From the IMG/VR virus record IMGVR_UViG_2541047963_000003: a stretch of 42,009 bases of DNA. One strand, 5' to 3'. The stretch's first letter is position 1; each line of letters opens with the position of its first letter. The DNA comes from a virus. Taxonomy: Duplodnaviria; Heunggongvirae; Uroviricota; Caudoviricetes. A program made the position numbers and the translations under genes. The notes below the pieces were generated by a model. The model was not told the DNA's origin and ran no database searches. It saw only the letters and a list, made by a program, of their open reading frames with translations. Positions 2,280-19,566 of the stretch are shown here, piece after piece.

Positions 2280-2285
2280 CTTTCA

Positions 2286-2375: not shown

Positions 2376-2377
2376 GT

Positions 2378-3693: not shown

Positions 3694-4475
3694 GCTGCCA
3701 CCTTCTGCTCTGCGGCTTTCTGTTTCAGGAATCCAAGAGCTTTTACTGCTTCGGCCTGTGTCAGTTCTGACGATGCGCGAATGTCGCGGCGAAATATCTG
3801 GGAACAGAGCGGCAATAAGTCGTCATCCCATGTTTTATCCAGGGCGATCAGCAGAGTGTTAATCTCCTGCATGCTTTCATCGTTAACCGGAGTGATGTCG
3901 CGTTCCGGCTGGCGTTCTGCAGTGTATGCGGTATTTTCGACAATGCGCTCGGCTTCATCCTTGTCATAGATACCAGCAAATCCGAAGGCCAGGCGGGCAC
4001 ACTGAATCATGGCTTTATGCCGTAACATCCGTTTGGGATGCGACTGCCACGGGCCGGTGATTTCTCTGCCTTCGCGGGTTTTGAATGGTTCGCGGCGGCA
4101 TTCATCCATCCATTCGGTAACGCAGATCGGATGATTACGGTCCTTGCGGTAAATCCGGCATGTACAGGATTCATTGTCCTGCTCAAAGTCCATGCCATCA
4201 AACTGCTGGTTTTCATTGATGATGCGGGACCAGCCATCAACGCCCACCACCGGAACAATGCCGTTCTGCTTATCAGGGAAGGCGTAAATTTCTTTCGTCC
4301 ACGGATTAAGGCCGTACTGGTTGGCGACGATCAACAATGCGATGAACTGCGCATCGCTGGCATCACCTTTAAATGCCGTCTGGCGAAGAGTGGTGATCAG
4401 TTCCTGTGGGTCGACAGAATCCATGCCGACACGTTCAGCCAGCTTCCCTGCCAGCGTTGCGAGTGCTGTACTCAT
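3690..4475 (-). CDS. bet: Recombination protein Bet (Red-beta, ssDNA annealing)
   Basis: 261-aa ORF; full-length match to recalled lambda Bet; overlaps exo start by 4 nt. Confidence 0.95.
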
Positions 4476-4480
4476 CCGTT

Positions 4481-4777
4481 TTATACCTCTGAATCAATAT
4501 CAACCTGGTGGTGAGCAATGGTTTCAACCATGTACCGGATGTGTTCTGCCATGCGCTCCTGAAACTCAACATCGTCATCAAACGCACGGGTAATGGCTTT
4601 TTTGCTGGCCCCGTGGCGTTGCAAATGATCGATGCAGAGTGATTCAAACAGGTGCTGGGACAGACCCTTTTCCATGTCGTCTGCCAGTTCTGCCTCTTTC
4701 TCTTCACGGGCGATCTGCTGGTAGTGACGTGCCCAGCTCTGAGCCTCAAGACGATCCTGAATGTAATAAGCGTTCAT
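4481..4777 (-). CDS. gam: Gam (RecBCD inhibitor), 98-aa short form
   Basis: [21 protein letters not shown]... matches lambda GamS; the in-frame upstream region reads ...FRSSA then hits a stop, so the 138-aa long form is not encoded. Confidence 0.9.
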
Positions 4778-4852
4778 GGCTGAACTCCTGAAAATGGCTG
4801 TGAAAATATCGCCCGCGAAATGCCCGGCTGATTAGGAAAACAGGAAAGGGGA

Positions 4853-5143
4853 TTAGTGATTGAGGCCGTTGCCGCGTCCGTCGAGAAAAACTTCCACGAG
4901 CAAATCACGGGTATAAGTGCGCTCGATGCCGCGATGCAGATAAAGCCGTCCGCGTAAATTAGCTGATGCAGTCCAGGTACCATCTTTGTGTTTGACCAGC
5001 ATTCCTGGCATGACCGCACCTCGATTAACGGTCTGCGTTCCGTAATGTTGATGAACCATAAAAACTCCTGCCCGTAAGCTGGGCTGCTGAACATATAGAG
5101 ACTTCTGCGCGTATTCAGGCGGTGGATGGCCGCCGGTTGTCAT
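4853..5143 (-). CDS. Hypothetical protein at the kil position (possibly shorter from an internal Met)
   Basis: 96-aa ORF; stop lies 76 nt upstream of the gam ATG, the spacing I recall for lambda kil relative to GamS; sequence not recognised. Confidence 0.35.
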
Positions 5144-5335
5144 AACTAAGCCGCCTCGTTGAAGCGACTAAGGTATGAAATGTTGAGTTGATTTCAGCTG
5201 GTCACACCGACGTTCACGCGTCCGTTTCACCCCTCGCACTCCCCGAAGCCTGCTGAAATTCAAACTGCGGATCTAAGCGGTCATCGCAACGGTGAATCAG
5301 GTAGTTGCCGTATCGTTGTGTTGTTGCGATGAACT

Positions 5336-5410
5336 TATTTAAAACTATAGTTGTTTTATCGTCAACAACAAAAGTTGTTTTATTGGTTGTTTTAGATATA
5401 ACTGGTTGTA
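5336..5410 (-). promoter_or_regulatory. Putative pL promoter and oL operator cluster
   Basis: On the minus strand, -35 TTGACG (plus 5360-5365), 17-18 nt spacer, -10 TTAAAT/TAAATA; spacer ATAAAACAACTATAGTT nearly identical to the pR spacer; GTTGTT/AACAAC inverted repeats at 5350-5369 and 5364-5379; repeated (A/G)GTTGTT at 5349, 5373, 5385, 5403. Confidence 0.5.
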
Positions 5411-5504
5411 TTTAGGATGGATTTATTTTGTGACTTGAATCGCATAGCGATAACTGAAGCGAGGTTATGGTGGTTTTTTTAACGGTGTGTGTGATGAGGG
5501 GAGG

Positions 5505-5533
5505 GCAAAAGAAAACCCGGCACGGTGACCGGG
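5505..5533 (-). terminator. Candidate intrinsic terminator downstream of the repressor gene
   Basis: Minus-strand hairpin CCCGG-N8-CCGGG (plus 5516-5533) followed by TTTTCTTTT on the minus strand; stem is only 5 bp. Confidence 0.35.
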
Positions 5534-5654
5534 ATTCTTACGCCGTTAGGTAAAGATATTATTGCGGTGGCTTAATATTACTACCTAGAGCAAAGATAGG
5601 AATTAGTTCTTTACTGAATGAGCACAATGCCCAGTTGATAATTTTTAATTGGTA

Positions 5655-6344
5655 CTACCCATGCTTCCTATATGTCTGCGGCATGCTCCCAATAACCTTA
5701 CCGAAGATGAACACCCGGTTCATCTCGTCTTTCTCGATCGGGTCCCACGGTGAGTAGCTTTTGTTATCAGAGATGACCAGCAGCTTATCCTTCATCATTT
5801 GCAGGCGCTTTACATGGGCTGTGTCGTCGTACAGAAACGCATAGATACCATCACCGTCGAAAGATTTAACTGTGATATCAACGAACAGCAGATCACCTGG
5901 TTCGATCGTTCCTGACATGCTGTCACCACGCACGTTAATGATGCGGATATTTTCCGCCTTCCTACCATCGAACATGTGACGAGCATCGTCAAACGAGTAC
6001 TCAACCGAGCGTAGAACTTCTACAAACTCACGGTTGATGACTCCCGGCCCAGCACTGACTTCTATATCAAGAACGTCAATCTTGAAGTATTTGGAATGGC
6101 TGACAGTTGATTGTATTGGTTGCACTGTACTGTCTGACATATTTCCAACGCCAGAAGATAACCATTCTGCGCGCACACCCAAAGCGTTCGCGATCTCCAC
6201 GATTTTAGTTGTTTGATTAGCTTTCCCTGTTTCGATTTTCTGAATAGCAGCCTGGCTAACCCCGACCAAATCCCCAAGCGCCTTTTGTGTAAGGCCTCGC
6301 GCTAATCTGGCTTCTTTAAGTCTTTCTGAGAGTGTTGTTTTCAT
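5655..6344 (-). CDS. cI: Prophage repressor, cI-like (XRE-family HTH plus S24 LexA-like peptidase domain)
   Basis: 229 aa from MKTTLSERLKEARLARGLTQKALGDLVGVSQAAIQKIETG (HTH); C-terminal GDSM...KRL resembles the S24 Ser/Lys dyad region; divergent from cro across an operator region. Confidence 0.85.
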   Translation of the reverse strand: MKTTLSERLKEARLARGLTQKALGDLVGVSQAAIQKIETGKANQTTKIVEIANALGVRAEWLSSGVGNMSDSTVQPIQSTVSHSKYFKIDVLDIEVSAGPGVINREFVEVLRSVEYSFDDARHMFDGRKAENIRIINVRGDSMSGTIEPGDLLFVDITVKSFDGDGIYAFLYDDTAHVKRLQMMKDKLLVISDNKSYSPWDPIEKDEMNRVFIFGKVIGSMPQTYRKHG

Positions 6345-7374: not shown

Positions 7375-8304
7375 ATGGCAAACACTGCTGAGATATTCAA
7401 TTTTCCAGTGCCGGATGCGGCACAAAAGGAGCCGCGCGTGGCAGATCTCGATGATGGTTATACGCGCATTGCAAATGAGTTGCTGGAAGCTGTGATGCTG
7501 GCCGGATTAACACAGCACCAGCTTCTGGTCTTCCTGGCTGTCATGCGCAAAACATATGGCTTTAATAAAAAACTGGATTGGGTGAGCAACGAGCAACTTT
7601 CCGAGTTGACCGGGATATTGCCGCACAAGTGTTCTGCTGCAAAAAGTGTTCTGGTAAAGCGTGGGATTTTTATTCAGAGCGGGCGGAATATCGGCATTAA
7701 TAATGTGGTCAGTGAATGGTCAACATTACCCGAATCAGGTAAGAAAAATAAAGTTTACCTGAAAGAGGTAAATTTACCTGAATCAGGTAAGAAAAGTTTA
7801 CCCAAATCAGGTAAAGACGTTTACCCGAATCAGGTAAACACAAAAGACAAACTAACAAAAGACAATATAAAACCTTTTTCGTCCGAGAATTCTGGCGAAT
7901 CCTCTGACCAGCCAGAAAACGATCTTCCTGTGGTGAAACCGGATGCTGCAATTCAGAGCGGCAGCAAGTGGGGGACAGCAGAAGACCTGACCGCCGCAGA
8001 GTGGATGTTTGACATGGTGAAGACCATCGCGCCATCAGCCAGAAAACCGAATTTTGCAGGGTGGGCTAACGATATCCGCCTGATGCGTGAACGTGACGGA
8101 CGTAACCACCGCGACATGTGTGTACTGTTCCGCTGGGCATGCCAGGACAACTTCTGGTCCGGTAACGTGCTAAGTCCGGCCAAACTCCGCGACAAGTGGA
8201 CCCAACTCGAAATCAACCGTAACAAGCAACAGGCTGGCGTGACAGCCGGAAAATCAAAACTCGACCTGACAAACACTGACTGGATTTATGGGGTGGATTT
8301 ATGA
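7375..8304 (+). CDS. O: Replication initiator O
   Basis: NVADLDDGYxR...LLEA, RKTYG, LPESGK repeats and the C-terminal LSPxKxRDKWTQLEINRNKQQAGVTAGKxKLDLTNTDWIYGVDL match lambda O; start placed at ATG 7375 (RBS GGGAGG); track ORF opens at 7285. Confidence 0.9.
   Translation: MANTAEIFNFPVPDAAQKEPRVADLDDGYTRIANELLEAVMLAGLTQHQLLVFLAVMRKTYGFNKKLDWVSNEQLSELTGILPHKCSAAKSVLVKRGIFIQSGRNIGINNVVSEWSTLPESGKKNKVYLKEVNLPESGKKSLPKSGKDVYPNQVNTKDKLTKDNIKPFSSENSGESSDQPENDLPVVKPDAAIQSGSKWGTAEDLTAAEWMFDMVKTIAPSARKPNFAGWANDIRLMRERDGRNHRDMCVLFRWACQDNFWSGNVLSPAKLRDKWTQLEINRNKQQAGVTAGKSKLDLTNTDWIYGVDL
7726..7875. repeat. Replication origin: five ~18-bp iterons plus AT-rich segment inside O
   Basis: TTACC(C/T)GAAtCAGGTAA-like repeats at 7726-7742, 7754-7772, 7773-7791, 7797-7815, 7820-7838, followed by the A-rich stretch CACAAAAGACAAACTAACAAAAGACAATATAAAACC. 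Confidence 0.7.
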
Positions 8305-9002
8305 AAAACATCGCCGCACAGATGGTTAACTTTGACCGTGAGCAGATGCGTCGGATCGCCAACAACATGCCGGAACAGTACGACGAAAAGCCGCAGGTAC
8401 AGCAGGTAGCGCAGATCATCAACGGTGTGTTCAGCCAGTTACTGGCAACTTTCCCGGCGAGCCTGGCTAACCGTGACCAGAACGAACTGAACGAAATCCG
8501 CCGCCAGTGGGTTCTGGCTTTCCGGGAAAACGGGATCACCACGATGGAACAGGTTAACGCAGGAATGCGCGTAGCCCGTCGACAGAATCGACCATTCCTG
8601 CCATCACCCGGGCAGTTTGTTGCCTGGTGTCGTGAAGAAGCATCTGTTATTGCCGGACTGCCAAACGCCAGCGAGCTGGTTGATATGGTTTACGAGTATT
8701 GCCGGAAGCGTGGACTGTATCCAGATGCAGAGTCTTATCCGTGGAAATCAAACGCGCACTACTGGCTGGTTACCAATCTGTACCAGAACATGCGGGCCAA
8801 TGCGTTGACTGACGCGGAATTACGGCGCAAGGCTGCCGATGAACTGTCCTGTATGACCGCGCGAATTAACCGTGGTGAGGCTATACCTGAACCAGTAAAA
8901 CAACTTCCTGTCATGGGCGGTAGACCTCTAAATCGTGCACAGGCTCTGGCGAAGATCGCAGAAATCAAAGCTAAGTTCGGACTGAAAGGAGCCAGTGTAT
9001 GA
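8301..9002 (+). CDS. P: Replication protein P (DnaB helicase loader)
   Basis: 233-aa ORF; full-length match to recalled lambda P; overlaps O stop. Confidence 0.95.
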   Translation: MKNIAAQMVNFDREQMRRIANNMPEQYDEKPQVQQVAQIINGVFSQLLATFPASLANRDQNELNEIRRQWVLAFRENGITTMEQVNAGMRVARRQNRPFLPSPGQFVAWCREEASVIAGLPNASELVDMVYEYCRKRGLYPDAESYPWKSNAHYWLVTNLYQNMRANALTDAELRRKAADELSCMTARINRGEAIPEPVKQLPVMGGRPLNRAQALAKIAEIKAKFGLKGASV

Positions 9003-9301
9003 CGGGAAAAGAAGCAATTATTCATTACCTGGGGGCTCATAAGAGCTTCTGTGCGCAGGACGTTGCTGCGGTAACAGGCGCAACAGTAACCAGCATAAAT
9101 CAGGCTGCGGCTAAAATGGCGCGGACAGGAATCTTAGTTATTGATGGTAAGGTCTGGCGAACGGTGTATTACCGGTTCGCTACCAGGGAAGAACGGGAAG
9201 GAAAGGTGAGCACGAATCTGATTTTCAAGGAGTGTCGCCAGAGTGCCGCGATGAAGCGGGTATTGAGGGTATATAAAAGAACATCAATGGGTACACAATG
9301 A
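8999..9301 (+). CDS. ren: Ren exclusion protein
   Basis: MTGKEAIIHYLGAHKSFCAQDVAAVTGATVTSINQAAAKMAR... matches lambda Ren. Confidence 0.9.
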   Translation: MTGKEAIIHYLGAHKSFCAQDVAAVTGATVTSINQAAAKMARTGILVIDGKVWRTVYYRFATREEREGKVSTNLIFKECRQSAAMKRVLRVYKRTSMGTQ

Positions 9302-9314
9302 TGAAACAGGTGAG

Positions 9315-9701
9315 TTGAGTTCAAACTGTAGTACAATTCTCTCCAGTTTGAACAGGAAAGAATATGCTATTAACCCTTATATTTATCTTGGTGGTGCAAT
9401 ACTTGCAGAGGTCATTGGTACAACCTTAATGAAGTTTTCAGAAGGTTTTACACGGTTATGGCCATCTGTTGGTACAATTATTTGTTATTGTGCATCATTC
9501 TGGTTATTAGCTCAGACGCTGGCTTATATACCTACAGGGATTGCTTATGCTATCTGGTCAGGAGTCGGTATTGTCCTGATTAGCTTACTATCATGGGGAT
9601 TTTTCGGCCAACGGTTGGACCTGCCAGCCATTATAGGCATGATGTTGATTTGTGCCGGTGTGTTGGTTATTAATTTATTGTCACGAAGCACACCACATTA
9701 A
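9315..9701 (+). CDS. emrE: SMR-family multidrug efflux protein EmrE (start codon uncertain)
   Basis: Residues from NPYIYLGGAILAEVIGTTLMKFSEGFTRLWPSVGTII... to ...LSRSTPH match E. coli EmrE; the position of the canonical Met reads ATT (9369-9371); the track ORF starts at TTG 9315; RBS AGGAAAG at 9354-9360. Confidence 0.8.
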   Translation: MSSNCSTILSSLNRKEYAINPYIYLGGAILAEVIGTTLMKFSEGFTRLWPSVGTIICYCASFWLLAQTLAYIPTGIAYAIWSGVGIVLISLLSWGFFGQRLDLPAIIGMMLICAGVLVINLLSRSTPH

Positions 9702-9956
9702 AAATAATTTATTTTTAAACGACTAAAATATGGAGGTTCGTATATTTGTATGGGCCTCGTTTTATGCTTTTTGTTAATGTCTTTAGTTTTTATTCATTCT
9801 TTTGATCTTTCAAGATTATGGTGTAAGAAAATTGCAATACGATTATTGTTGTATATTCAAGATAATGTGACCTTAATTGTCTTTTTAAATAAAAATTAAA
9901 CAAAAATCATATCTCACCACTAAGGTTTATAAAAGCATACTTTAGCAGGTGTCACC

Positions 9957-11483
9957 ATGAAAAAAGCCATAGCATATATGCGATTTTCATCACCAGGTCA
10001 GATGTCTGGTGATTCATTAAACCGCCAGAGAAGGCTTATTACTGAATGGCTAAAGGTAAATAGTGATTATTACCTTGATACCGTAACGTATGAAGATTTG
10101 GGGTTAAGCGCATTCAATGGAAAGCATGCACAATCAGGAGCTTTTTCGGAATTTTTAGATGCTATAGAACATGGTTACATATTGCCAGGGACTACATTGT
10201 TAGTTGAAAGTCTGGACAGACTTTCAAGAGAAAAAGTCGGTGAAGCGATTGAGCGTCTGAAATTGATTTTGAATCACGGTATTGATGTTATAACTCTTTG
10301 CGATAATACAGTCTATAATATAGACTCATTGAATGAGCCATATTCATTAATAAAAGCCATACTTATAGCACAAAGGGCAAATGAAGAAAGCGAGATAAAG
10401 TCAAGTCGGGTTAAATTATCATGGAAGAAAAAACGGCAGGATGCACTGGAATCAGGCACGATTATGACGGCGTCTTGTCCGAGATGGCTCTCATTGGATG
10501 ACAAAAGAACAGCTTTTATTCCAGACCCCGACAGGGTGAAAACGATTGAGCTAATTTTTAAACTCAGGATGGAAAGGCGATCATTGAATGCAATAGCTAA
10601 GTATTTAAATGATCATGCTGTAAAAAATTTTTCAGGAAAAGAAAGTGCATGGGGGCCTTCTGTAATTGAAAAATTATTAGCGAATAAAGCTCTGATAGGT
10701 ATATGCGTACCTTCATATCGTGCAAGAGGGAAAGGGATAAGTGAAATCGCTGGCTATTATCCCAGAGTCATATCAGATGATTTGTTTTACGCTGTACAGG
10801 AAATTCGGTTGGCACCTTTTGGTATTAGCAATAGTAGCAAGAATCCTATGCTAATAAATCTACTTCGAACAGTTATGAAGTGTGAGGCTTGTGGTAATAC
10901 CATGATTGTTCATGCGGTATCTGGACGTTTGCATGGCTATTATGTTTGTCCGATGAGAAGATTACATCGATGTGACAGGCCATCAATAAAAAGAGATTTG
11001 GTTGATTATAATATCATTAATGAATTGCTTTTTAATTGTAGCAAAATTCAACCAGTTGAAAACAAGAAAGATGCTAATGAAACTTTAGAGTTAAAAATTA
11101 TTGAGCTTCAGATGAAAATTAATAATTTAATCGTTGCATTGTCTGTCGCGCCTGAAGTTACCGCTATAGCAGAGAAAATAAGACTATTAGATAAGGAATT
11201 ACGAAGGGCTTCGGTATCATTAAAAACTTTGAAGAGTAAAGGGGTGAGTTCACTTGGTGATTTTCATGCTATTGATTTAACCAGTAAAAATGGGCGAGAG
11301 CTATGTCGTACACTTGCCTATAAAATATTCGAAAAAATTATAATTAATACAGATAATAAAACCTGTGATATCTATTTTATGAATGGCATTGTTTTTAAAC
11401 ACTATCCTTTAATGAAAGTAATATCCGCCCAGCAGGCGATAAGTACTCTTAAATATATGGTTGATGGTGAGATTTATTTTTGA
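9957..11483 (+). CDS. ybcK: Large serine recombinase (YbcK-like)
   Basis: 508 aa; N-terminal resolvase-type catalytic region (AIAYMRFSSPGQ...LLVESLDRLSR), Cys-rich zinc-ribbon-like segment (CEACGN...CPMRRLHRCD), C-terminal coiled-coil-like region; matches my recollection of DLP12 YbcK; visibly AT-rich gene. Confidence 0.85.
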   Translation: MKKAIAYMRFSSPGQMSGDSLNRQRRLITEWLKVNSDYYLDTVTYEDLGLSAFNGKHAQSGAFSEFLDAIEHGYILPGTTLLVESLDRLSREKVGEAIERLKLILNHGIDVITLCDNTVYNIDSLNEPYSLIKAILIAQRANEESEIKSSRVKLSWKKKRQDALESGTIMTASCPRWLSLDDKRTAFIPDPDRVKTIELIFKLRMERRSLNAIAKYLNDHAVKNFSGKESAWGPSVIEKLLANKALIGICVPSYRARGKGISEIAGYYPRVISDDLFYAVQEIRLAPFGISNSSKNPMLINLLRTVMKCEACGNTMIVHAVSGRLHGYYVCPMRRLHRCDRPSIKRDLVDYNIINELLFNCSKIQPVENKKDANETLELKIIELQMKINNLIVALSVAPEVTAIAEKIRLLDKELRRASVSLKTLKSKGVSSLGDFHAIDLTSKNGRELCRTLAYKIFEKIIINTDNKTCDIYFMNGIVFKHYPLMKVISAQQAISTLKYMVDGEIYF

Positions 11484-11808
11484 GTAATAATCACTTTTTC
11501 AACCGTGCTATGGTATGAAAGTAAAGTAACTAATATGATATTAACTATCTTGAACGAAGCGCCCTGAGCTATAGTTTTACTATAGGCACTGTCACTGGAT
11601 GTTGGCATTCTTGCTCTAGTAGCTCAACAATACCCAATCACAAAACAATTCACTGATAACAAACTTTGTGCACGTGCTTGGTTATGGCGAACAGGTGATG
11701 TTAACCTCTTGCCAGAATGCCACTCCACTTCATTAAGTATCTGAGCACCGAGAGGCTGGTCACGCCCCCATTAAAAATAATTTCTTTTGAATCGAGTGAA
11801 ATAGGTTA

Positions 11809-11834
11809 GCCCGCATAAGTGCGGGCTGCTTTTT
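11809..11834 (+). terminator. Intrinsic terminator hairpin between ybcK region and the convergent esterase gene
   Basis: GCCCGC-ATAAGT-GCGGGC stem-loop followed by TGCTTTTT; overlaps the esterase stop codon. Confidence 0.5.
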
Positions 11835-12876
11835 ACAGGTCAGCGTTTGTTTTTTGTTGTTGGGTAGCGGTTTTTATGGGGGTTCCCAGGTTTTTAGTAA
11901 ACCACTCAACAACTCTGTTTATAATAATTGGCTGATACCATGTATTATCGCCATGCTCGGCCCCTTCTACCAGCACGTACTCAGCGTTATCACCGTTCTT
12001 CTTCAACATCCTGAATAGTTTGGCGCTTTGCTCAGGTGAAACCAGAGTGTCTTTGCTACCATGCATAATAAGAAATGGGGGTTTTACTCCTTTCATATGT
12101 CCGATTGGACTGGCGTTTAGCGCTTTTTCTTTTGACGCTGTGATGGGGGCTCCCGCAAAATTTCTGAATGCAGGGCCATTGATCATTAAGGCTTCGGTTA
12201 CGGCAGGAGAGCGATGAACCTCCTGCACTGATTCAGGGAACCCCTCGCCAATATTCAACAAGTCAGAAATCCCATAAAGTGTGGCAACTGCCTGAACATC
12301 TGAGGATTGCTGAAGAAAGTCACCTTTATCAAAGGTTTTGTCACCATTTGTAGTTCCCATCATCTGGGCAAGCCATCCACCGGCAGAGTCACCCAGAACT
12401 CCGATTCTTTGAGGATCAATCCCATAATTGCTGGCATGCTCTCTCAGGTAACGTATTGCAGCTTTTCCATCCTCAACTGGTGCTGGAAATGTATCAGGAA
12501 TTGTTCTGTATTCTACAGCGGCCACAACAAAACCAGCTTCTGCCAGAGCCATTCTCATTTCAATAAATTTGTCATGTTCAGAAGACATGAATCCGCCGCC
12601 GGGATAATAAATAATGGCTGGTTTTAAATCATTTGTTCGCGGGACAAGAACTGACATGTGAAGCTGTCTGACAGAACGAGTTCCTTTTATCTGGGAATAA
12701 ACAACATCACCAATGAGATCGACCTGGTTTCTGGTCGGTGAAACACTAATGATATCTGCACCCGGGGTGTAACCAGGAAGATTAGTCTGGACAGGTGTTG
12801 CACAACTCCCGACCGACATGGCCATTGACATACCATACAATAGTGTTGCAGATGATAATATCTTGTTAATTTTCAT
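11833..12876 (-). CDS. Secreted alpha/beta-hydrolase, hormone-sensitive-lipase-family esterase/lipase (possible lipoprotein)
   Basis: 347 aa; N-terminal signal peptide with possible lipobox (MSVGSC); oxyanion-hole PGGGF; nucleophile elbow GDSAGG; downstream HGSKD and AEHG consistent with an Asp/His triad. Confidence 0.8.
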   Translation of the reverse strand: MKINKILSSATLLYGMSMAMSVGSCATPVQTNLPGYTPGADIISVSPTRNQVDLIGDVVYSQIKGTRSVRQLHMSVLVPRTNDLKPAIIYYPGGGFMSSEHDKFIEMRMALAEAGFVVAAVEYRTIPDTFPAPVEDGKAAIRYLREHASNYGIDPQRIGVLGDSAGGWLAQMMGTTNGDKTFDKGDFLQQSSDVQAVATLYGISDLLNIGEGFPESVQEVHRSPAVTEALMINGPAFRNFAGAPITASKEKALNASPIGHMKGVKPPFLIMHGSKDTLVSPEQSAKLFRMLKKNGDNAEYVLVEGAEHGDNTWYQPIIINRVVEWFTKNLGTPIKTATQQQKTNADL

Positions 12877-13174
12877 GTTTTACATGCCTTGACTTATCGG
12901 ATGAAATTCTCTTACTGAATTTAACGGCAGTTTAATAGCCGTACAACTCGTGGTAGCCAGGGAAATATCCCAGTCGTGGTTAAGGTTGTACTTGACGGCT
13001 ATTATTTCAACAATGCTTAAAGTGAGAGCTTAAGGTTATGCGTATGTTTTACAGTCCGAGTAGATTCTGACCAATAGCTTCTTTGTATAATTCTGTCAGA
13101 AATAAATCTTGGCTTGCATGAAGTTTGAGACCTTATCTTGTTTGATTATGAATAATCAATTCGCCATAATTGTA

Positions 13175-13201
13175 TCACCGGAGCCTGAACAACTCCGGTG
13201 A
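13175..13201. promoter_or_regulatory. Perfect 9-bp inverted repeat upstream of ybcN
   Basis: TCACCGGAG-CCTGAACAA-CTCCGGTGA; no adjacent T-run on either strand, so not a canonical terminator. Confidence 0.35.
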
Positions 13202-13323
13202 CTTCTGCGCTAAACGGGGACGTTTATGCGCACACACAATCCAAACTCTCTTCTCCCTTCACAGATGCAGAAATGCACCTGCGTTTTTTTGCATCCAGCG
13301 TCTGACCTCTGTGGAGGTGAAGC

Positions 13324-13779
13324 GTGAACCTACCACAAGATGGCATCAAACTGCATCGCGGTAACTTCATCGCTATCGGCCAGCAGATCCAGCCTTATCT
13401 GGAGGACGGAAAATGCTTTCGCATGGTGCTTAAACCGTGGCGTGAGAAACGCAGTCTTTCCCAGAATGCACTCAGCCACATGTGGTACAGCGAAATCAGT
13501 GAATACCTCATCAGCAGGGGTAAAACGTTCGCCACTCCAGCTTGGGTAAAAGATGCTCTCAAACACACTTATCTCGGTTATGAAACCAAAGAACTGGTTG
13601 ATGTCGTAACCGGTGAAATCACCACCATTCAGTCATTACGTCATACCTCCGATCTCGATATCGGAGAGATGTATGTCTTCCTGTGTAAGGTTGAAGCCTG
13701 GGCGATGAATATTGGCTGCCACCTGACTATTCCGCAGAGCTGCGAGTTCCAGCTGCTGCGCGACAAGCAGGAGGCGTAA
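13324..13779 (+). CDS. ybcN: YbcN-like nin-region protein (DLP12 YbcN, reported DNA base-flipping protein)
   Basis: 151-aa ORF starting at GTG with RBS GGAGGTG; sequence matches my recollection of K-12 YbcN; same position in the nin operon. Confidence 0.75.
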
Positions 13780-13949
13780 TGGCTACACCGCTTATTCGTG
13801 TCATGAACGGACACATCTACAAAGTACCAAATCGTCGTAAGCGTAAACCTGAGCTGAAGCCATCCGAAATACCAACACTGCTCGGGTATACCGCCAGCCT
13901 GGTTGATAAAAAATGGTTGCGACTGGCAGCAAGGAGGAATAATGGCTGA
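13779..13949 (+). CDS. ninE: NinE-like protein
   Basis: 56-aa ORF ([56 protein letters not shown]); start overlaps the ybcN stop (TAATG); below the track cutoff. Confidence 0.65.
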   Translation: MATPLIRVMNGHIYKVPNRRKRKPELKPSEIPTLLGYTASLVDKKWLRLAARRNNG

Positions 13950-14232
13950 TTTAAGAAAAGCAGCGCGTGGTCGGGAATGCCAGGTAAGAATCCCTGGCGT
14001 ATGTAATGGCAATCCTGAAACGTCAGTACTGGCACATATCCGGCTGGCTGGATTGTGCGGTACCGGTATCAAACCGCCAGACCTGATTGCCACCATTGCA
14101 TGTTCTGCCTGCCACGACGAAATCGACCGTCGCACGCATTTTGTTGACGCTGGATATGCAAAAGAATGCGCGCTGGAAGGTATGGCGAGAACACAGGTTA
14201 TCTGGTTGAAAGAGGGGGTTATTGAGGCGTGA
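13942..14232 (+). CDS. ybcO: YbcO-like putative Cys-rich metal-binding nuclease
   Basis: 96 aa from [37 protein letters not shown]...; matches recalled DLP12 YbcO; overlaps the ninE stop. Confidence 0.75.
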
Positions 14233-14591
14233 ATACCTACAGCATCACATTACCCTGGCCTCCGAGCAATAATCGCTATTACCGCCATAATCGTGGGCGC
14301 ACGCATATCAGCGCAGAGGGGCAGGCATACCGCGATAATGTCGCCCGAATCATTAAAAACGCAATGCTGGATATCGGCCTGGCTATTCCTGTGAAAATCA
14401 GCATTGAGTGCCACATGCCGGATCGCCGTCGCCGTGACCTTGATAATCTGCAAAAGGCCGCTTTTGACGCACTCACCAAAGCAGGTTTCTGGCTGGATGA
14501 TGCTCAGGTCGTTGATTACCGCGTTGTGAAGATGCCCGTTACCAAAGGTGGGAAGCTGGAGCTGACTATCACTGAACTGGGAGATGAATGA
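14229..14591 (+). CDS. rusA: Holliday-junction resolvase RusA
   Basis: 120-aa ORF matching E. coli RusA ([28 protein letters not shown]...[29 protein letters not shown]). Confidence 0.9.
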
Positions 14592-14728
14592 TGTTTGAGT
14601 CTTATATGGCAGAGCGTCTTCGCCGCCGCTGGGTGCGCCTGCGCTTATATCGTTTTCCTGGTTCTGTTTTGACCGATTACCGGATACTGAAGAATTACGC
14701 CAAAACACTGAAAGGAGCTGCCGCATGA
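14588..14728 (+). CDS. ylcG: YlcG-like small protein
   Basis: 46-aa [49 protein letters not shown], overlapping rusA stop and the next start; below the track cutoff. Confidence 0.5.
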
Positions 14729-15414
14729 ATACCCAATATTTACAGTATGTCCGCGAGCAACTCATTGTGGCTACCGCTGATTTGAGCGGAGCAACGAAAG
14801 GACAGCTTGAAGCCTGGCTGGAGCATGCACAATTTGATACTGGTACATACAAACGAAAGAAGCCGCGCATTCTGGATGAGGTAACTGGCAGGATGATTAC
14901 GCTGGATAATCCGCCGATTTCCGGTAAGCAGTCGTACGTAAAAGGTTCATCCATTGCACTGGTCAGCCAGGTTGAGTTCTCAACCTCGTCATGGCGCCGC
15001 GCGGTTCTGTCTCTCGAAGAACATCAGAAAGCGTGGTTGCTGTGGAGTTACAGCGAAAGTGTTCGCTGGGAACATCAGGTCACCATAACGCAGTGGGCAT
15101 GGAGCGAGTTTAAGACTCTGTTGGGTACCAGGAAAATTGCAGGTAAAACACTGGAACGTTTGAAGAAGTTGATCTGGCTGGCGGCACAGGATGTGAAGAA
15201 CGAGCTGGCAGGGCGTAAGACCTATGAATACCAGGAGCTGGCATCACTGGTGGGAGTGACATCAAAAAACTGGTCTGAGACATTTACTGAACGCTGGGTT
15301 GCAATGAAGCACATTTTTCTACAGCTTGATAGCCAGGCTTTATTGCTTTTAACGAAAACACGTTCAAAACAAAAGACCATATTTTCACAGCAAGATATTG
15401 CAAAACTGGATTAA
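14725..15414 (+). CDS. Putative late-gene antiterminator Q (non-lambda type)
   Basis: 229-aa ORF sitting between rusA/ylcG and the lysis cassette, followed by a promoter-like element and terminator hairpins; not similar to lambda Q; call is positional. Confidence 0.55.
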   Translation: MNTQYLQYVREQLIVATADLSGATKGQLEAWLEHAQFDTGTYKRKKPRILDEVTGRMITLDNPPISGKQSYVKGSSIALVSQVEFSTSSWRRAVLSLEEHQKAWLLWSYSESVRWEHQVTITQWAWSEFKTLLGTRKIAGKTLERLKKLIWLAAQDVKNELAGRKTYEYQELASLVGVTSKNWSETFTERWVAMKHIFLQLDSQALLLLTKTRSKQKTIFSQQDIAKLD

Positions 15415-15443
15415 AAATCATATATTTTATGTAAATCTGATAT

Positions 15444-15472
15444 TTTGCCAATGTTGTACGCACTGGCAGTAA
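15444..15472 (+). promoter_or_regulatory. Candidate late promoter pR'
   Basis: -35 TTGCCA (15444-15449), 17-nt spacer, -10 AGTAAT (15467-15472); weak -10, so tentative. Confidence 0.3.
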
Positions 15473-15480
15473 TCCAAATT

Positions 15481-15516
15481 CAAGCCCGAGGTTTAAAGCC
15501 TTGGGCTTTTCTGTTT
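15481..15516 (+). terminator. Hairpin with U-rich tail (pause/terminator-like; possible qut-proximal element)
   Basis: AAGCCCGAGG-TTTAAAG-CCTTGGGCTT (10-bp stem with one G-U pair) followed by TTCTGTTTCTG. Confidence 0.4.
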
Positions 15517-15595
15517 CTGAACGGTGAGTAGCCTTCCAACCTACCCCAGCCAGGGTGTCTTCAGCTGTTGAGTTGATATTGCTTAACCCTCTGTT

Positions 15596-15620
15596 GCCAG
15601 CTACATGCTGGCTTTTTTAT
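15596..15620 (+). terminator. Intrinsic terminator, tR'-like, upstream of the lysis genes
   Basis: GCCAGC-TACAT-GCTGGC followed by TTTTTTATT. Confidence 0.6.
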
Positions 15621-15734
15621 TCCAGGCTTGCGGGGAGCATCAACTCCGTGCTTTGTCGTTAAATTACCCCGTGAGCCTGATTTCTGACATTTAACGTCCC
15701 GGCCTTTTGTCGGCGGCGAAACATTGGCTATTCA

Positions 15735-16041
15735 TATGCACGAAAAAGAGAGCCTTGCCGGAGCGTTCTGGCTCGTTTTGCTGATCATCGCAGGTTGGGG
15801 CGGTCTGGTCCGCTACCTGATAGATGTGAAGCAGAGTAAAGCAACGTGGAGTTGGATAAATGCTCTGGCTCAAATAGTGGTATCAGGATTCACCGGTGTT
15901 ATTGGTGGCCTGATCAGCATCGAAAGTGGATTCAGTATTTACATGATTCTCGCGACAGCGGGGATTAGTGGTGCGATGGGTTCGGTTGCACTGACGTACT
16001 TCTGGGAACGACTGACAGGGGTGAAAAATGCAAAATCTTAA
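15735..16041 (+). CDS. Holin, class I (three predicted transmembrane segments), non-lambda sequence
   Basis: Hydrophobic segments LAGAFWLVLLIIAGWGGLV, INALAQIVVSGFTGVIGGLI, IYMILATAGISGAMGSVAL; charged C-terminus; immediately upstream of and overlapping R; an in-frame TTG at 15724 gives a possible dual-start. Confidence 0.75.
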
Positions 16042-16504
16042 TCCTCAGCGTAAAGCTTTCCTCGATATGTTGGCGTGGTCAGAAGGAACGGATAACGGAC
16101 GGCAGCCAACCCGCAATCACGGCTACGACGTCATTGTTGGCGGAGAGCTATTCACTGATTACTCCGATCACCCTCGCAAACTTGTCACGCTAAACCCCAA
16201 ACTCAAATCAACAGCAGCCGGACGTTACCAGCTTCTTTCCCGTTGGTGGGATGCTTACCGTAAGCAGCTTGGCCTGAAAGACTTCTCTCCCAAAAGTCAG
16301 GACGCTGTGGCACTGCAACAGATTAAAGAGCGTGGCGCTTTACCGATGATTGACCGCGGTGATATTCGTCAGGCAATCGACCGTTGCAGCAATATCTGGG
16401 CTTCACTGCCGGGCGCTGGTTATGGCCAGTTCGAGCATAATGCTGACAGCCTGATTGCAAAATTCAAAGAAGCAGGCGGAACGGTCAGAGAGATTGAGGT
16501 ATGA
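16028..16504 (+). CDS. R: Endolysin R (lambda-type lytic transglycosylase)
   Basis: 158-aa ORF near-identical by recollection to lambda R ([21 protein letters not shown]...). Confidence 0.95.
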
Positions 16505-16962
16505 GCAGAGTCACCGCGATTATCTCCGCTCTGATTATCTGCATCATCGTCTGCCTGTCATGGTCTGTTAATCATTACCGTGATAACGCCATTACCTACA
16601 AAGCCCAGCGCGACAAAAATGCCAGAGAACTGAAGCTGGCGAACGCGGCAATTACTGACATGCAGATGCGTCAGCGTGATGTTGCTGCGCTCGATGCAAA
16701 ATACACGAAGGAGTTAGCTGATGCGAAAGCTGAAAATGATGCTCTGCGTGATGATGTTGCCGCTGGTCGTCGTCGGTTGCACATCAAAGCAGTCTGTCAG
16801 TCAGTGCGTGAAGCCACCACCGCCTCCGGCGTGGATAATGCAGCCTCCCCCCGACTGGCAGACACCGCTGAACGGGATTATTTCACCCTCAGAGAGAGGC
16901 TGATCACTATGCAAAAACAACTGGAAGGAACCCAGAAGTATATTAATGAGCAGTGCAGATAG
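16501..16962 (+). CDS. Rz: Spanin inner-membrane subunit Rz
   Basis: 153 aa with N-terminal TM segment and coiled-coil body; matches lambda Rz. Confidence 0.9.
16721..16903 (+). CDS. Rz1: Spanin outer-membrane lipoprotein Rz1, embedded in Rz in the +1 frame
   Basis: 60-aa ORF with lipobox (VVGC) and the proline run [15 protein letters not shown], as in lambda Rz1. Confidence 0.85.
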
Positions 16963-16993
16963 AGCTGCCCATATCGATGGGCAACTCATGCAA

Positions 16994-17287
16994 TTATTGT
17001 GAGCAATACACACGCGCTTCCAGCGGAGTATAAATGCCTAAAGTAATAAAACCGAGCAATCCATTTACGAATGTTTGCTGGGTTTCTGTTTTAACAACAT
17101 TTTCTGCACCACCACAAATTTTTGCTGCATCGACAGTTTTCTTCTGCCCAATTCCCGAAACGAAGAAATGATGGGTGATGGTTTCCTTTGGTGTTACTGC
17201 TGTAGGTTTGTTTCCAACAGTAAATGTCTGTTGAGCACATCCTGTAATAAGCATTGCCAGAGCGGCAGAAAACAACATTTTTTTCAT
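16994..17287 (-). CDS. bor: Bor lipoprotein (serum-resistance moron)
   Basis: 97 aa from MKKMLFSAALAMLITGCAQQTF...; matches lambda Bor; the track ORF extends 16 codons further upstream. Confidence 0.9.
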   Translation of the reverse strand: MKKMLFSAALAMLITGCAQQTFTVGNKPTAVTPKETITHHFFVSGIGQKKTVDAAKICGGAENVVKTETQQTFVNGLLGFITLGIYTPLEARVYCSQ

Positions 17288-17767
17288 CTTATTATCCTGC
17301 ATTGTTAAAAACGGCAGAATCCTATGTGACAACAATTAAACGATAGTTAAATGGATTGATGAAAATTAAAACTACACAGGTGGGCTCAGACTATTGGAGG
17401 AAGTTGGGGACACTCAGAATCCTGTGGAATGAAATAAACCGGTCTATCCGTCCATTACCCTTTTAGCTGCGCTGTATCGTCGCCGGATTCCCGCATTAAC
17501 CATGACCGTAGCCCGACGGGGAATTCCTTCTGCGTGAGTGTGCGGGAATAATTAAAAACGATGCACACCGGGTTTTTACCGCGTTAATGATTCGCGGGTT
17601 TATCCCGGTGCGATGGTGGAAGAAACAGGAAGCTGTATTACAGAAAGTGCTACTACTGTATCCCGATGCGATGTATGTAATGTGAGTCAGATAATGGCAC
17701 AGGATGTGGTGATGTGGCAGTCTGGAACACAGGATATATTGTCAGAATAAGACCCGTAGGAATAAAA

Positions 17768-18094
17768 ATGAAAAGACGCCTTTTACTACTTTTTCTGTTA
17801 TCTGTCCTGGCAGTGGGATGCTCGCAGCAAAAAGCTGATGAGCCCCGGCAATTAGTGACGGTGTATCCACGATATCCGGAATATGCTGCAGCAAATTATA
17901 TCAAGGGGCTGGTTGAGGTTAAGTTCGATATTGGTGCTGATGGGACTGTGACACGGATCGTTTTTCTCCGCTCAGAGCCTCATAATTTGTTTCGTGATGA
18001 AGTGGTGAAGGCCATGGCGAAATGGCGATTTGAAAAGAATCGCCCCTGTCAGGGAGTGAAGAGACAATTTATCTTTACGCCGTCACGTCCTTGA
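17768..18094 (+). CDS. Lipoprotein with a TonB C-terminal-like domain
   Basis: Signal peptide plus lipobox (MKRRLLLLFLLSVLAVGC); segment YPEYAAANYIKGLVEVKFDIGADGTVTRIVFLRSEPHNLFRDEVVKAMAKWRFE aligns by eye with E. coli TonB C-terminal domain ([45 protein letters not shown]); RBS AGGA 7 nt upstream. Confidence 0.6.
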   Translation: MKRRLLLLFLLSVLAVGCSQQKADEPRQLVTVYPRYPEYAAANYIKGLVEVKFDIGADGTVTRIVFLRSEPHNLFRDEVVKAMAKWRFEKNRPCQGVKRQFIFTPSRP

Positions 18095-18457
18095 TGCTTC
18101 CAGGTAGAGAGGGGCTGGAAGCAGGAGAAAAATGAAAGAGCCAGCGGTTATATTTTTGTCATGGCTGACGAGGAATGATGGAAGAAGGCGTTGTATGCCA
18201 CACAACGCCTCACTGTTCATTTCTTCTTTTTCTCTGGTGGAACCCGATGAATAAGAGTTGCACTGGTTTCCGATGAGATGGCGATATACTCGGGCAAAGT
18301 ATGCTGGCAGTTTTCCAACTGGTCAAAAATACCTGCTCTCGTCTGTTGCAATGCCTGCAGCATGCGGCGGCAATGCGCCTTGCTTTTACTAACCATCTTT
18401 CCTTCCTCTATCAGTCGCTGCGTGAACTCATCATGGAATACCAGGTAAATGCGGATG

Positions 18458-18709
18458 TTATCGGTTTTGGCTACGCAGCATAGTACAAAACGGACAGGTG
18501 CATCCCGGGACGGGGGAGGCGTCACATGTCCCTGTGATGGTTGTTCCGGGTAATGTACTGTGTGGGGCATAAAAATGTCCGATAATTTTACTTTCTACCG
18601 CAGTTAGTTGATTCGTTGGTCCTGGTAGCACATTGGGCGAGGATTTAAATGCCAGGCAACTGAAGGATGATGTCGCAAGGGAGATAGCGAGAATATTTCT
18701 GATTTTCAT
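18458..18709 (-). CDS. Hypothetical small secreted Cys-containing protein
   Basis: 83 aa from internal ATG (MKIRNILAISLATSSFSCLA...) with signal-peptide-like N-terminus and GTCDASPVPGCTCPFC; overlaps other ORFs on both strands, so the true coding frame here is uncertain. Confidence 0.25.
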   Translation of the reverse strand: MKIRNILAISLATSSFSCLAFKSSPNVLPGPTNQLTAVESKIIGHFYAPHSTLPGTTITGTCDASPVPGCTCPFCTMLRSQNR

Positions 18710-18829
18710 TTGATGATGCCTCTGTGTGAAATGACGGTAAACGACGCACTTGTGCCGGCACGTAATAGCAAGCACCATAATAGATCAGATTCGATTCTTG
18801 CTGTAAGTGATAATTATTCTCGTTTTTGG

Positions 18830-19040
18830 GTCCTTTCCGTCGATCCAACAGGTTACGGGGCGGCGACCTCGCGGGTTTTCGCTATTTATGAAAATTTTCC
18901 GGTTTAAGGCGTTTCCGTTCTTCTTCGCCGTAACTTAATGTTTTTATTTAAAATACCCCCTGAAAAGAAAGGAAGCGACAGGTGCTGAAAACGGGCTTTT
19001 TGGCCTCTGTCGTTTCCTTTCTCTGTTTTTGTCCGTGGAA
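18830..19040. other. cos: cos packaging site (cosQ, cosN, cosB)
   Basis: GGGCGGCGACCT at 18858-18869 is the lambda 12-nt cohesive end, followed by CGCGGGTTTTCGCTATTTATGAAAATTTTCCGG (lambda left-end sequence); Nu1 starts 178 nt downstream. Confidence 0.85.
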
Positions 19041-19046
19041 TGAACA

Positions 19047-19566
19047 ATGGAAGTCAACAAAAAGCAGCTGGCTGACATTTTCGGTGCGAGTATCCGTACC
19101 ATTCAGAACTGGCAGGAACAGGGAATGCCCGTTCTGCGAGGCGGTGGCAAGGGTAATGAGGTGCTTTATGACTCTGCCGCCGTTATAAAATGGTATGCCG
19201 AAAGGGATGCTGAAATTGAGAACGAAAAGCTGCGCCGGGAGGTTGAAGAACTGCGACAGGCCAGCGAGGCAGATCTCCAGCCAGGGACTATTGAGTACGA
19301 ACGCCATCGACTTACGCGTGCGCAGGCCGACGCACAGGAGCTGAAAAATGCCAGAGACTCCGCTGAAGTGGTGGAAACTGCATTCTGTACTTTCGTGCTG
19401 TCGCGGATCGCAGGTGAAATTGCCAGTATTCTCGACGGGATCCCCCTGTCGGTGCAGCGGCGTTTTCCGGAACTGGAAAACCGACATGTTGATTTCCTGA
19501 AACGGGATATCATCAAAGCCATGAACAAAGCAGCCGCGCTGGATGAACTGATACCGGGGTTGCTGA

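Follow-up and report, generated by a model that had tools for sequence, protein, structure and literature searches.

A lambdoid prophage of Escherichia coli carries, as solitary cargo, a gene for a predicted exported BD-FAE-family esterase

The locus and the cargo cassette

The DNA described here is a stretch of 42,009 nucleotides of a tailed virus (Caudoviricetes; IMG/VR record IMGVR_UViG_2541047963_000003), hereafter called the window, and the subject of this work is a gene for a predicted esterase located on its minus strand, within the nin region of a prophage of the lambdoid type similar to DLP12 of E. coli K-12. It is proposed below that its product is an exported carbohydrate esterase of the feruloyl type. 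The gene lies in a cassette between a ybcK-type recombinase gene and ybcN (Table 1), and it is read against both of them, i.e., against the direction of the nin operon, as had been described in an initial annotation made from the sequence alone. A blastn comparison with K-12 revealed homology only over positions 9088-11522 and 13141-14729 of the window, with 94-96% identity. At the slot occupied by the esterase, K-12 DLP12 carries ybcL-ybcM on the plus strand (positions 2971-4783 of the K-12 stretch), which agrees with the earlier statement that the gene is absent from the gene sets of lambda and of K-12 DLP12. The break-points of the cassette are sharp, 41 bp past the stop codon of ybcK and 85 bp ahead of ylcH. 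The G+C content is 43.1% for the cassette, 44.6% for the esterase gene (38.5% at third codon positions, GC3) and 51.7% for the window. The element that had been proposed as an opposite-strand moron is thus a discrete cassette cleanly exchanged with respect to K-12, and the esterase gene is a classical lambdoid moron in the known variable slot between ybcK and ybcN. The adjacent block formed by emrE, a ylcJ-like open reading frame (ORF) and ybcK (positions 9200-11600) has a G+C fraction of 0.30-0.40, as compared with about 0.50-0.55 in nearby phage genes; because of this very low value, the block would itself be foreign cargo lying beside the esterase cassette.

Table 1. Features of the esterase cassette and its flanks (positions in the window)
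Feature	Position	Strand	Remarks
Whole cargo cassette	11523..13140		1618 bp; replaces the 1813-bp ybcL-ybcM segment of K-12 DLP12
Left flank, ybcK-type large serine recombinase	9957..11483	+	Conserved DLP12-like gene
Right flank, ybcN (NinB-like)	13324..13779	+	Start of the nin/rusA/Q block
Esterase gene	11833..12876	-	347 aa, ATG start; predicted alpha/beta hydrolase of the BD-FAE family
Signal peptide, codons 1-25 (predicted)	12802..12876	-	K2, K5, hydrophobic core, ends in V-G-S-Cys25
PGGGF oxyanion-hole loop, aa 92-96	12589..12603	-	Read from the sequence
GDSAGG nucleophile elbow, aa 162-167	12376..12393	-	Ser164 codon at 12385-12387
Asp276, putative triad acid	12049..12051	-	Invariance and alignment with BD-FAE Asp237
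His308, putative triad base	11953..11955	-	Invariance and alignment with BD-FAE His269
GC-rich hairpin	11807..11828		8-bp stem, 5 nt past the esterase stop codon
Cassette-specific upstream non-coding region	12877..13140	-	
Weak promoter candidate	-35 CTCTCA, 13023-13028; extended -10 TGaAATAAT, ending at 13001	-	16-nt spacer; candidate transcription start near 12994

The esterase and its catalytic residues

The esterase ORF was found exactly where the initial annotation had placed it and with the length it had given, and the two motifs reported for it, PGGGF and GDSAGG, are read directly in the translation. The candidates for the acid and the base of the catalytic triad, which had been noted only as an Asp and a His further downstream, could be narrowed to Asp276 and His308: these residues are invariant in alignments of 17 and of 99 homologues, as are Gly93-95 and Ser164. 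Pro92 and Phe96 are likewise invariant in the alignment of 99 sequences, and the oxyanion stretch reads Y-Y-P-G-G-G-F. The ratio of nonsynonymous to synonymous substitution rates (dN/dS) against three relatives is 0.05-0.10, a range to be read qualitatively because dS is saturated. The low dN/dS and the invariant catalytic residues argue for a working enzyme, and the sequence supports a serine esterase that is exported, intact and in possession of all three triad residues. The possibility of a pseudogene was discarded given the intact ORF, the conserved triad and the low dN/dS.

This gene has already been catalogued, and hence it is not an undescribed one. The identical database protein is WP_000700204.1, annotated as 'alpha/beta hydrolase'; the identical protein of phage Perceval is PERCE_52/LF82_159; and the phage orthologous group phrog_3341, named 'esterase', was matched at 1.3e-129. 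Nevertheless, a literature search by accession and locus tag found no main-text discussion of the function of the esterase, and the supplement of a CRISPRi study of gut fitness in strain LF82 has no entry for it. A paper on 'feruloyl esterases' of E. coli MC3 was considered and set aside as uninformative, since it concerns generic CE1 annotations.

Family assignment and predicted structure

The best Pfam match of the protein is BD-FAE (PF20434), with an E-value of 5.5e-45 and 153.9 bits versus a cut-off of 26.8, and it extends over residues 80-290 and over model positions 7-214 of 215. Abhydrolase_3, the HSL-type Pfam family, scores lower (81.3 bits, 1.1e-22), and a secondary match to Peptidase_S9 covers the C-terminal part; BD-FAE itself has been described with this same hybrid pattern, an Abhydrolase_3 profile in the N-terminal half and a Peptidase_S9 profile in the C-terminal one. 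No NCBIfam model reached its cut-off for this protein: the HSL subfamilies GTSAG, GESAG and GCSAG gave 54.8, 47.5 and 32.3 bits versus cut-offs of 380-430, and the weak matches to the acetyl-xylan esterase AxeA1 (3.8e-11) and the pectin acetylesterase PaeX (1.4e-12) also remained far under theirs.

Among solved structures, matches over the full domain were obtained with 6NKF (1e-37), which is Lip_vut4, with 6MLY (3e-22), which is the esterase domain of a GH43-CE protein of Bacteroides eggerthii, and with BD-FAE, 6XYC/6TKX (about 2e-21). Structures of the BD-FAE type align over residues 48-330, whereas HSL-type crystal structures align only over residues 75-185, approximately. In the alignment with 6XYC/6TKX, Ser164, Asp276 and His308 fall on Ser128, Asp237 and His269 of BD-FAE (numbering of PMC8165983; Ser128 corresponds to Ser121 of the 6XYC chain). 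An AlphaFold model built on the alignment of 99 sequences has a pLDDT of 86.2 and a pTM of 0.84, and disorder is confined to the signal peptide (pLDDT below 50 at residues 1-28), the loop 238-241 and the last residues; an earlier model from a shallow alignment of 17 sequences (pLDDT 56.8) was discarded. When the model was compared with known structures using Foldseek, places 1-8 were taken by chains of 6NKF, 6XYC, 6TKX and 6MLY, with TM scores of 0.78-0.87 normalised to target length over single-domain chains. The order was 6NKF (0.86), the BD-FAE entries 6XYC/6TKX (0.78-0.81) and 6MLY, with HSL esterases at 0.55-0.70; the acetyl ester-xyloside hydrolase 6A6O is also among the structural neighbours.

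The initial annotation had called the product an HSL-family esterase/lipase and had named Abhydrolase_3, together with carboxylesterase families, for a profile search. What stands from this is the assignment to an esterase family of alpha/beta hydrolases, but the best profile is BD-FAE, the His of the HGGG motif is replaced by Pro92 and HSL structures are matched only in part. Because the Pfam scores, the alignment span and the Foldseek ranking all favour BD-FAE, we replace the HSL label with that of BD-FAE. The structure prediction shows a fold of the BD-FAE type, and the triad residues are set by alignment to the BD-FAE crystal structure. From these comparisons, the protein is best classed as a BD-FAE-family carbohydrate esterase and not as a strict member of the HSL family, the two being related families of alpha/beta hydrolases.

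A different view of these data is that the gene encodes a general short-chain carboxylesterase or lipase, similar to HSL/family IV enzymes or to Lip_vut4, that acts on lipids or simple esters without a specific link to plant phenolics. A GDSAGG elbow and a GGG loop are common to family IV, for which the Abhydrolase_3 match also counts, 6NKF was deposited as a lipase, and alpha/beta hydrolases of the esterase type are often promiscuous on p-nitrophenyl esters. We regard this as unlikely, given that BD-FAE outscores Abhydrolase_3, that the HSL structures cover the N-terminal half only, that the best of the HSL models of NCBIfam stays at 54.8 bits where 380 are required, that the HGGG His is a Pro, and that a decarboxylase found repeatedly next to the homologues (see below) indicates esters of phenolic acids.

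Signal peptide and possible lipid anchor

The N-terminus, MKINKILSSATLLYGMSMAMSVGSC-, is built like a Sec signal peptide, and an N-terminal signal peptide is present in every family member that was compared, in most of them with an ordinary A-x-A cleavage site. The signal peptide of the initial annotation is therefore a trait of the whole family. The lipobox that had been suggested as possible holds up only in part, since V-G-S-C25 fits a permissive PROSITE-type pattern but fails the classical [LVI][ASTVI][GAS]C at position -2, occupied by Gly; an alternative site for signal peptidase I is S-C-A/T27. Cys25 is the dominant allele in E. coli, on at least 1000 contigs, and a Tyr25 allele was found on four contigs. 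A Cys of this kind at the end of the signal peptide is confined to the nearest subclade (relatives P0002, P0003 and P0005, in our numbering), most of the family lacking it; the motif S-[AT]-G-Cys, placed one residue ahead of Cys25 of E. coli, is found in three of the five nearest relatives. The putative lipidation site holds either Cys or Tyr in each of two separate lineages, at residue 25 in E. coli and at residue 24 in P0005 (Cys) and P0004 (Tyr); in E. coli, a single G/A change in codon 25 (12802-12804) would make the difference between a soluble protein and one that may be lipidated. The residue at +2 after Cys25 is Ala, and by the sorting rule of E. coli a lipoprotein with Ala at this position would go to the outer membrane. 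Judging from these sequence patterns, the odds that the esterase is lipidated at Cys25 are about even.

At the other end of the protein, nearly all 99 members share a low-complexity tail of the form G.P.K......[ND]A[NSD]L-COOH with a conserved last Leu (residues 331-347, positions 11836-11886). In the AlphaFold model of the esterase this tail is disordered; it could be a sorting or secretion signal.

Transcription of the gene in lysogens

The prophage Perceval of strain LF82 encodes the identical protein (LF82_159/PERCE_52) with identical spacing to its neighbours, and therefore the published RNA sequencing (RNA-seq) tables of this strain could be used (PMC9928086, tables S1 and S4, two replicates). 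The esterase received 1650 and 1665 reads in condition B1, 266 and 258 in B6, 27 and 15 in stationary phase in LB, and 203 and 364 or 145 and 191 after 1 h or 6 h in macrophages, respectively. B1 and B6 most likely stand for bacteria on their own in DMEM, at 1 h and at 6 h respectively, as we infer from the descriptions of the tables. In B1 the neighbouring genes were represented by 10 and 17 reads (ybcN) and by 54 and 61 reads (the ybcK recombinase), and the increase of the esterase in macrophages at 6 h over LB corresponds to a log2 fold change of 2.26 with q = 2.7e-13 (PMC9928086). The esterase is not in the list of morons given by the authors of that study (PMC9928086). The expression in lysogens that the initial annotation had left to be checked is thus seen in LF82, where the esterase is transcribed while the flanking phage genes are silent; the gene is autonomously transcribed in the lysogen, in a condition-dependent manner, and it is a moron in the functional sense of the term.

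Another aspect of this locus is the GC-rich hairpin close to the end of the gene. On the minus strand it folds with -14.8 kcal/mol (z -3.1) and on the plus strand with -20.4 kcal/mol (z -3.9), much better than shuffled controls do. The hairpin at the 3' end of the esterase gene that had been annotated is therefore real; however, a terminator scan detected a T-run only on the plus strand, and for this reason the structure was scored as a terminator for transcription coming from ybcK and not for the esterase. It probably shields the cassette from read-through from ybcK, and it may serve in both directions, ending the esterase transcript too. The upstream region of its own that had been ascribed to the gene (12877-13170) also exists, but it ends at 13140, given that homology with K-12 DLP12 resumes at 13141. 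No Rfam family was matched in or around the cassette, and the cassette holds no regulator gene.

Distribution in E. coli and its phages

Of 5426 complete E. coli genomes, 671 contain the ORF with at least 95% identity, in almost all cases as a single chromosomal copy, and a query that included the flanks was covered over at least 80% of its length in 672 records, from which it follows that the context on the right-hand side (that of ybcN) is constant. The exact protein was found on at least 1000 contigs, and its UniProt entry comes from strain NRG 857C. Eight records of lambdoid phages encode a protein that is 100% identical: 4A7 (two records), Lambda_4C10, D2, 1W, 3W, Perceval and PhiR47_2. 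The initial annotation had raised the possibility of a widespread core gene that is merely adjacent to the prophage; with this prevalence and its presence in the genomes of isolated phages, the gene is not a core gene, and that possibility was ruled out. The esterase is a phage cargo widespread in B2 lineages. In SE15 and in the ST131 strain ZH193 the prophage adjoins icd. In ZH193 the esterase (14001-15044) has as its 3' neighbour, in place of emrE-ybcK, a gene for an inverse autotransporter of 1421 residues similar to intimin/invasin (15081-19346), and iss (bor-like) and TonB-fragment genes are found further along. Because the left neighbour differs in this strain, the esterase module appears to travel independently of its left flank, and the region between the replication gene P and ybcN would be an island of several morons with variable content.

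It could be argued that the gene is a neutral passenger, acquired by illegitimate recombination and of no benefit to the phage or to the host in E. coli. As will be seen below, the phage acquired just the esterase part of a decarboxylase-esterase module, a clear promoter was not detected and expression in LB is low, all of which would fit a passenger. We nevertheless consider this extremely unlikely: the gene is intact, with its triad preserved, in about 670 complete genomes and in the eight phage records, it is kept where the other flank differs (ZH193), and in one condition its transcription exceeds that of its neighbours 30- to 100-fold.

Relatives and gene neighbourhoods

A total of 2587 homologous proteins were detected at E <= 1e-10. 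Those with 59-80% identity are numerous and belong mostly to the chromosomes of plant-associated Enterobacterales; homologues in this order were found in Dickeya, Pectobacterium, Pantoea, Kosakonia, Kluyvera, Klebsiella oxytoca and Raoultella. Further homologues are present in Rhizobium, Agrobacterium, leaf Sphingomonas, Vibrio and Aeromonas, as well as in gut Bacteroides, Prevotella, Parasutterella, Campylobacter and Desulfovibrio. Proteins of the Enterobacterales are 58-64% identical to those of gut Bacteroides, Phocaeicola, Prevotella, Parasutterella, Campylobacter and Desulfovibrio, and because this identity is unusually high across phyla, it suggests repeated horizontal transfer of the family. 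Insertion sequence (IS) elements flank the loci of two close relatives.

The genomes of Dickeya encode two feruloyl esterases, FaeD, which is secreted by the type II system Out, and FaeT, both formerly placed in CAZy family CE10. The original paper on these enzymes reportedly showed that both cleave feruloyl esters and that faeD responds to ferulic acid by induction. In D. aquatica, one protein (P0079), whose UniRef name is 'Ferulate esterase', is 63-66% identical to the phage protein; another paralogue of the BD-FAE family, with 47% identity to that of the phage, is encoded 3 kb from the P0079 gene, beside a LysR regulator. The two paralogues are located at 8001-9032 and 12089-13075 of the locus, both have signal peptides, and an MFS transporter gene and the LysR gene lie between them. 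They are presumably faeD and faeT. The phage protein is probably an orthologue of one of the two feruloyl esterases of Dickeya.

A second clue to the substrate comes from the gene order around the homologues. In P0002, the closest relative outside E. coli (80% identity), a gene for a phenolic-acid decarboxylase (PF05870) ends 33 bp ahead of the esterase start, with IS elements on both sides of the pair; in P0005 (74%) the decarboxylase-esterase pair is accompanied by a divergent LysR regulator. Thus, of the three closest relatives outside E. coli for which the neighbouring genes were read, two have the decarboxylase directly upstream and on the same strand. The same arrangement was found in 10 of 80 species-representative loci, with a divergent LysR gene in nine: one each from Serratia, Mangrovibacter, Acinetobacter, Aeromonas, Pedobacter and a proteobacterial metagenome-assembled genome, and two each from Symbiopectobacterium and Azospirillum, so that Gamma- and Alphaproteobacteria and Bacteroidota are represented. 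An all-against-all clustering of neighbours revealed that LysR and the decarboxylase are the only families that recur beyond local synteny. The pairing of an exported esterase with a decarboxylase of free ferulic, p-coumaric and caffeic acids is what would be expected if the esterase liberates these acids from their esters. Homology to the relatives at the DNA level is restricted to the coding region, and the window shows no remnant of the decarboxylase; the phage acquired the esterase gene of the pair only.

The family data also allow for an enzyme that is mainly a glycan O-acetyl esterase, acting on acetylated xylan or pectin or on O-acetylated sugars derived from the host, and that frees acetate or unmasks sugars for the bacterium, in the manner of NanS-p of Stx prophages with sialic acids. 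BD-FAE is bifunctional and deacetylates birchwood xylan, and the weak AxeA1 and PaeX matches together with the structural neighbour 6A6O point in the same direction. This alternative is nevertheless quite unlikely: those NCBIfam scores are far below the cut-off, glycan-utilisation genes do not recur as neighbours, the protein does not resemble the SGNH/SASA fold of NanS-p, and the signal from the neighbourhood is one of phenolic acids.

The initial annotation had suggested a possible role at the cell surface, with superinfection exclusion or seroconversion as the outcome; in this reading, an envelope esterase would deacylate the lipopolysaccharide (LPS), the capsule or another receptor of the lysogen. 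An esterase that is exported, and possibly anchored by lipid to the outer membrane, would be suited to this, and its slot in a temperate phage also receives other morons of host interaction (ybcL in K-12, and the inverse autotransporter beside it in ST131). No evidence supports this role, which we consider very unlikely. A search with PADLOC gave no family for the esterase at E <= 0.001; the homologues are stand-alone chromosomal genes whose recurrent functional neighbours are the decarboxylase and LysR; among the relatives of 59-80% identity that were read, only the copy of phage PHB10 is phage-borne and none lies beside LPS or capsule genes; and the family consists largely of proteins that are secreted in soluble form and are not anchored in the envelope. 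To our knowledge, moreover, the seroconverting phages alter O-acetyl groups by means of other protein families.

The PHB10 record (positions 1-5915) has its homologue, 73% identical, just upstream of the rus/Q genes, and with it genes of bacterial type for a LysR regulator, an amidohydrolase, a gluconolactonase and an aromatic alcohol reductase. Either the family was captured here a second time, within a larger segment, or DNA of the host is part of this record.

Proposed role of the esterase

Taken together, the family assignment, the Dickeya relatives and the decarboxylase pairing lead us to propose, with a probability of about 60%, that the gene product is a serine carbohydrate esterase of feruloyl type, exported and belonging with FaeD and FaeT of Dickeya to the BD-FAE family, and that a lambdoid phage captured the gene as a stand-alone moron. 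It looks like a diet-related cargo gene and not like a lipase or a modifier of the cell surface. According to this proposal, the gene is separately transcribed in the lysogen, as seen for the identical gene of Perceval in LF82, and the product would be exported by the Sec pathway, given the signal peptide common to the family. The E. coli allele may then be anchored by lipid at Cys25 and sent to the outer membrane, a step as uncertain as the lipidation itself. With Ser164, Asp276 and His308 and the oxyanion loop of Gly93-95, residues assigned by homology with a crystal structure, the enzyme would hydrolyse ester bonds. Its likeliest substrates would be hydroxycinnamoyl esters (feruloyl, caffeoyl, p-coumaroyl) on oligosaccharides of the plant cell wall, or soluble esters, chlorogenic acid being one example, as suggested by the biochemistry of the family and the gene neighbourhoods; acetyl esters could be a side activity. 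The benefit would be for the bacterial host in a gut rich in plant fibre and not for the phage's lytic cycle.

Several observations weigh against this proposal. Neither the cassette nor the rest of the window has a remnant of the decarboxylase (best tblastn E 0.22), and beside the homologues of gut Bacteroidota, Sutterellaceae and Parasutterella there are no genes for xylan or glycan utilisation but unrelated housekeeping and efflux genes. No member above about 50% identity has an enzyme assay verifiable by sequence, the link to proven feruloyl esterases comes from a database name and the paralogue pair of D. aquatica, BD-FAE itself is only about 25% identical, and the nearest solved structure, 6NKF, bears the name of a lipase. 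Moreover, E. coli is not known to break down ferulate, which makes a benefit for the host less obvious. Regarding expression, in stationary phase in LB the esterase is about 3.8-fold over the floor set by its silent neighbours (our own calculation), i.e., under the 5-fold cut-off used for morons by the authors of the LF82 study. A standard scan of the minus strand of 12877-13140 found no sigma-70 promoter, and a relaxed scan gave a single candidate (Table 1), an unconvincing 8/12 match with a TG extension.

The proposal of an exported feruloyl-type esterase can be extended, although in this wider form we hold it as possible but doubtful. A temperate phage would spread a cell-surface hydroxycinnamoyl (feruloyl/chlorogenate) esterase among gut E. 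coli (ST131, the adherent-invasive E. coli LF82/NRG857c, and SE15) as an auxiliary metabolic gene for a plant diet; this would be the enzyme behind the strain-variable hydrolysis of chlorogenic acid and further hydroxycinnamate esters by human colonic isolates, and a secreted enzyme would have been made into an outer-membrane lipoprotein by a single Cys in the phage-borne subclade. Couteau et al. (2001) reportedly isolated from human faeces E. coli that hydrolyse chlorogenic acid, the gene not being identified. According to reviews, the gut bacteria able to convert hydroxycinnamate esters include E. coli, and the esterase cassette is a reasonable candidate gene for the hydrolysis of chlorogenic acid by gut E. 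coli.

What is new here is modest: an esterase for plant phenolics or carbohydrates that is carried as lambdoid cargo, is found widely in B2 lineages and may have become a lipoprotein. If the cleavage of feruloyl or caffeoyl esters is true, about one in eight sequenced E. coli, including the pandemic ST131 and the adherent-invasive LF82, would owe a diet-related activity to a lambdoid prophage. This activity would release bioactive phenolic acids from fibre or from chlorogenic acids of the coffee type. It would also add an enzyme for plant polymers or xenobiotics to the fitness genes of Enterobacteria phages, which are mostly toxins, adhesins, serum-resistance and defence genes, and it would provide a testable candidate gene for the cinnamoyl-esterase activity reported in gut E. 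coli. If the enzyme is merely a promiscuous esterase, the gene would be an ordinary annotated moron.

Comparison with known systems

The family is named after BD-FAE (PF20434; 6TKX/6XYC), a bifunctional feruloyl/acetyl-xylan esterase from a xylan-utilisation locus of Bacteroidetes. The phage protein shares with it the Pfam family, the hybrid profile, the aligned Ser-Asp-His triad, the fold (TM 0.78-0.81) and the signal peptide. The differences are the low identity, about 25%, the motifs, since the phage protein has a GGG loop and GDSAGG where BD-FAE has Y-G-S and GFSSGG, and the genetic setting, given that the gene described here is carried by a phage in a proteobacterium, outside any polysaccharide-utilisation locus. 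The resemblance to FaeD and FaeT of Dickeya is closer, as judged from the identity to the D. aquatica pair (63-66% and 47%), the length of 328-347 residues, the signal peptide and the motifs. The Dickeya genes, however, are chromosomal, adjacent to LysR and part of a set that degrades plant cell walls, whereas the phage gene is alone in its prophage. It has no adjacent regulator of the FaeR type, a difference that counts against equal regulation but not against equal catalysis; in addition, no partner for type II secretion was identified, and in the E. coli allele the signal peptide ends with a Cys.

In comparison with family IV of the HSL group, represented by Aes of E. coli and EST2, the alpha/beta hydrolase fold, the GDSAG-type elbow and the glycine-rich oxyanion loop upstream of it are held in common. 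Unlike these enzymes, the phage protein has a Pro in place of the His of HGGG and a C-terminal half of the Peptidase_S9/BD-FAE type, and it is predicted to be exported, while Aes is cytoplasmic. The closest structure is that of Lip_vut4 (6NKF), a 'lipase' from a goat-rumen metagenome, with 32-33% identity and a TM of 0.86 over residues 48-330; no published biochemistry of Lip_vut4 was found, so this structure is uninformative on the substrate.

As a cargo gene, the esterase is similar to other lambdoid morons, such as ybcL-ybcM of DLP12, whose exact slot in K-12 it occupies, or bor/iss, lom and nmpC, which are located elsewhere; like them, it has a lower G+C content, it is dispensable for the phage, its product is exported or directed to the envelope, and it is transcribed in the lysogen. 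It differs in that the predicted product would be an enzyme for plant polymers or phenolic esters and not an adhesin, a porin, a serum-resistance lipoprotein or an immune modulator, and in its orientation, opposed to the nin operon. Finally, NanS-p, the sialate O-acetylesterase of the Stx prophages of enterohaemorrhagic E. coli (EHEC), belongs to an unrelated family, is built on SGNH/SASA and DUF1737 domains and has a different position in the phage genome, whereas the esterase is an alpha/beta hydrolase of the BD-FAE type; its Pfam matches are all to alpha/beta hydrolase families, with none to an SGNH/SASA domain. Nevertheless, both are esterases carried by prophages, and there may be an ecological likeness between them, in that each would give its host access to substrates derived from the gut.

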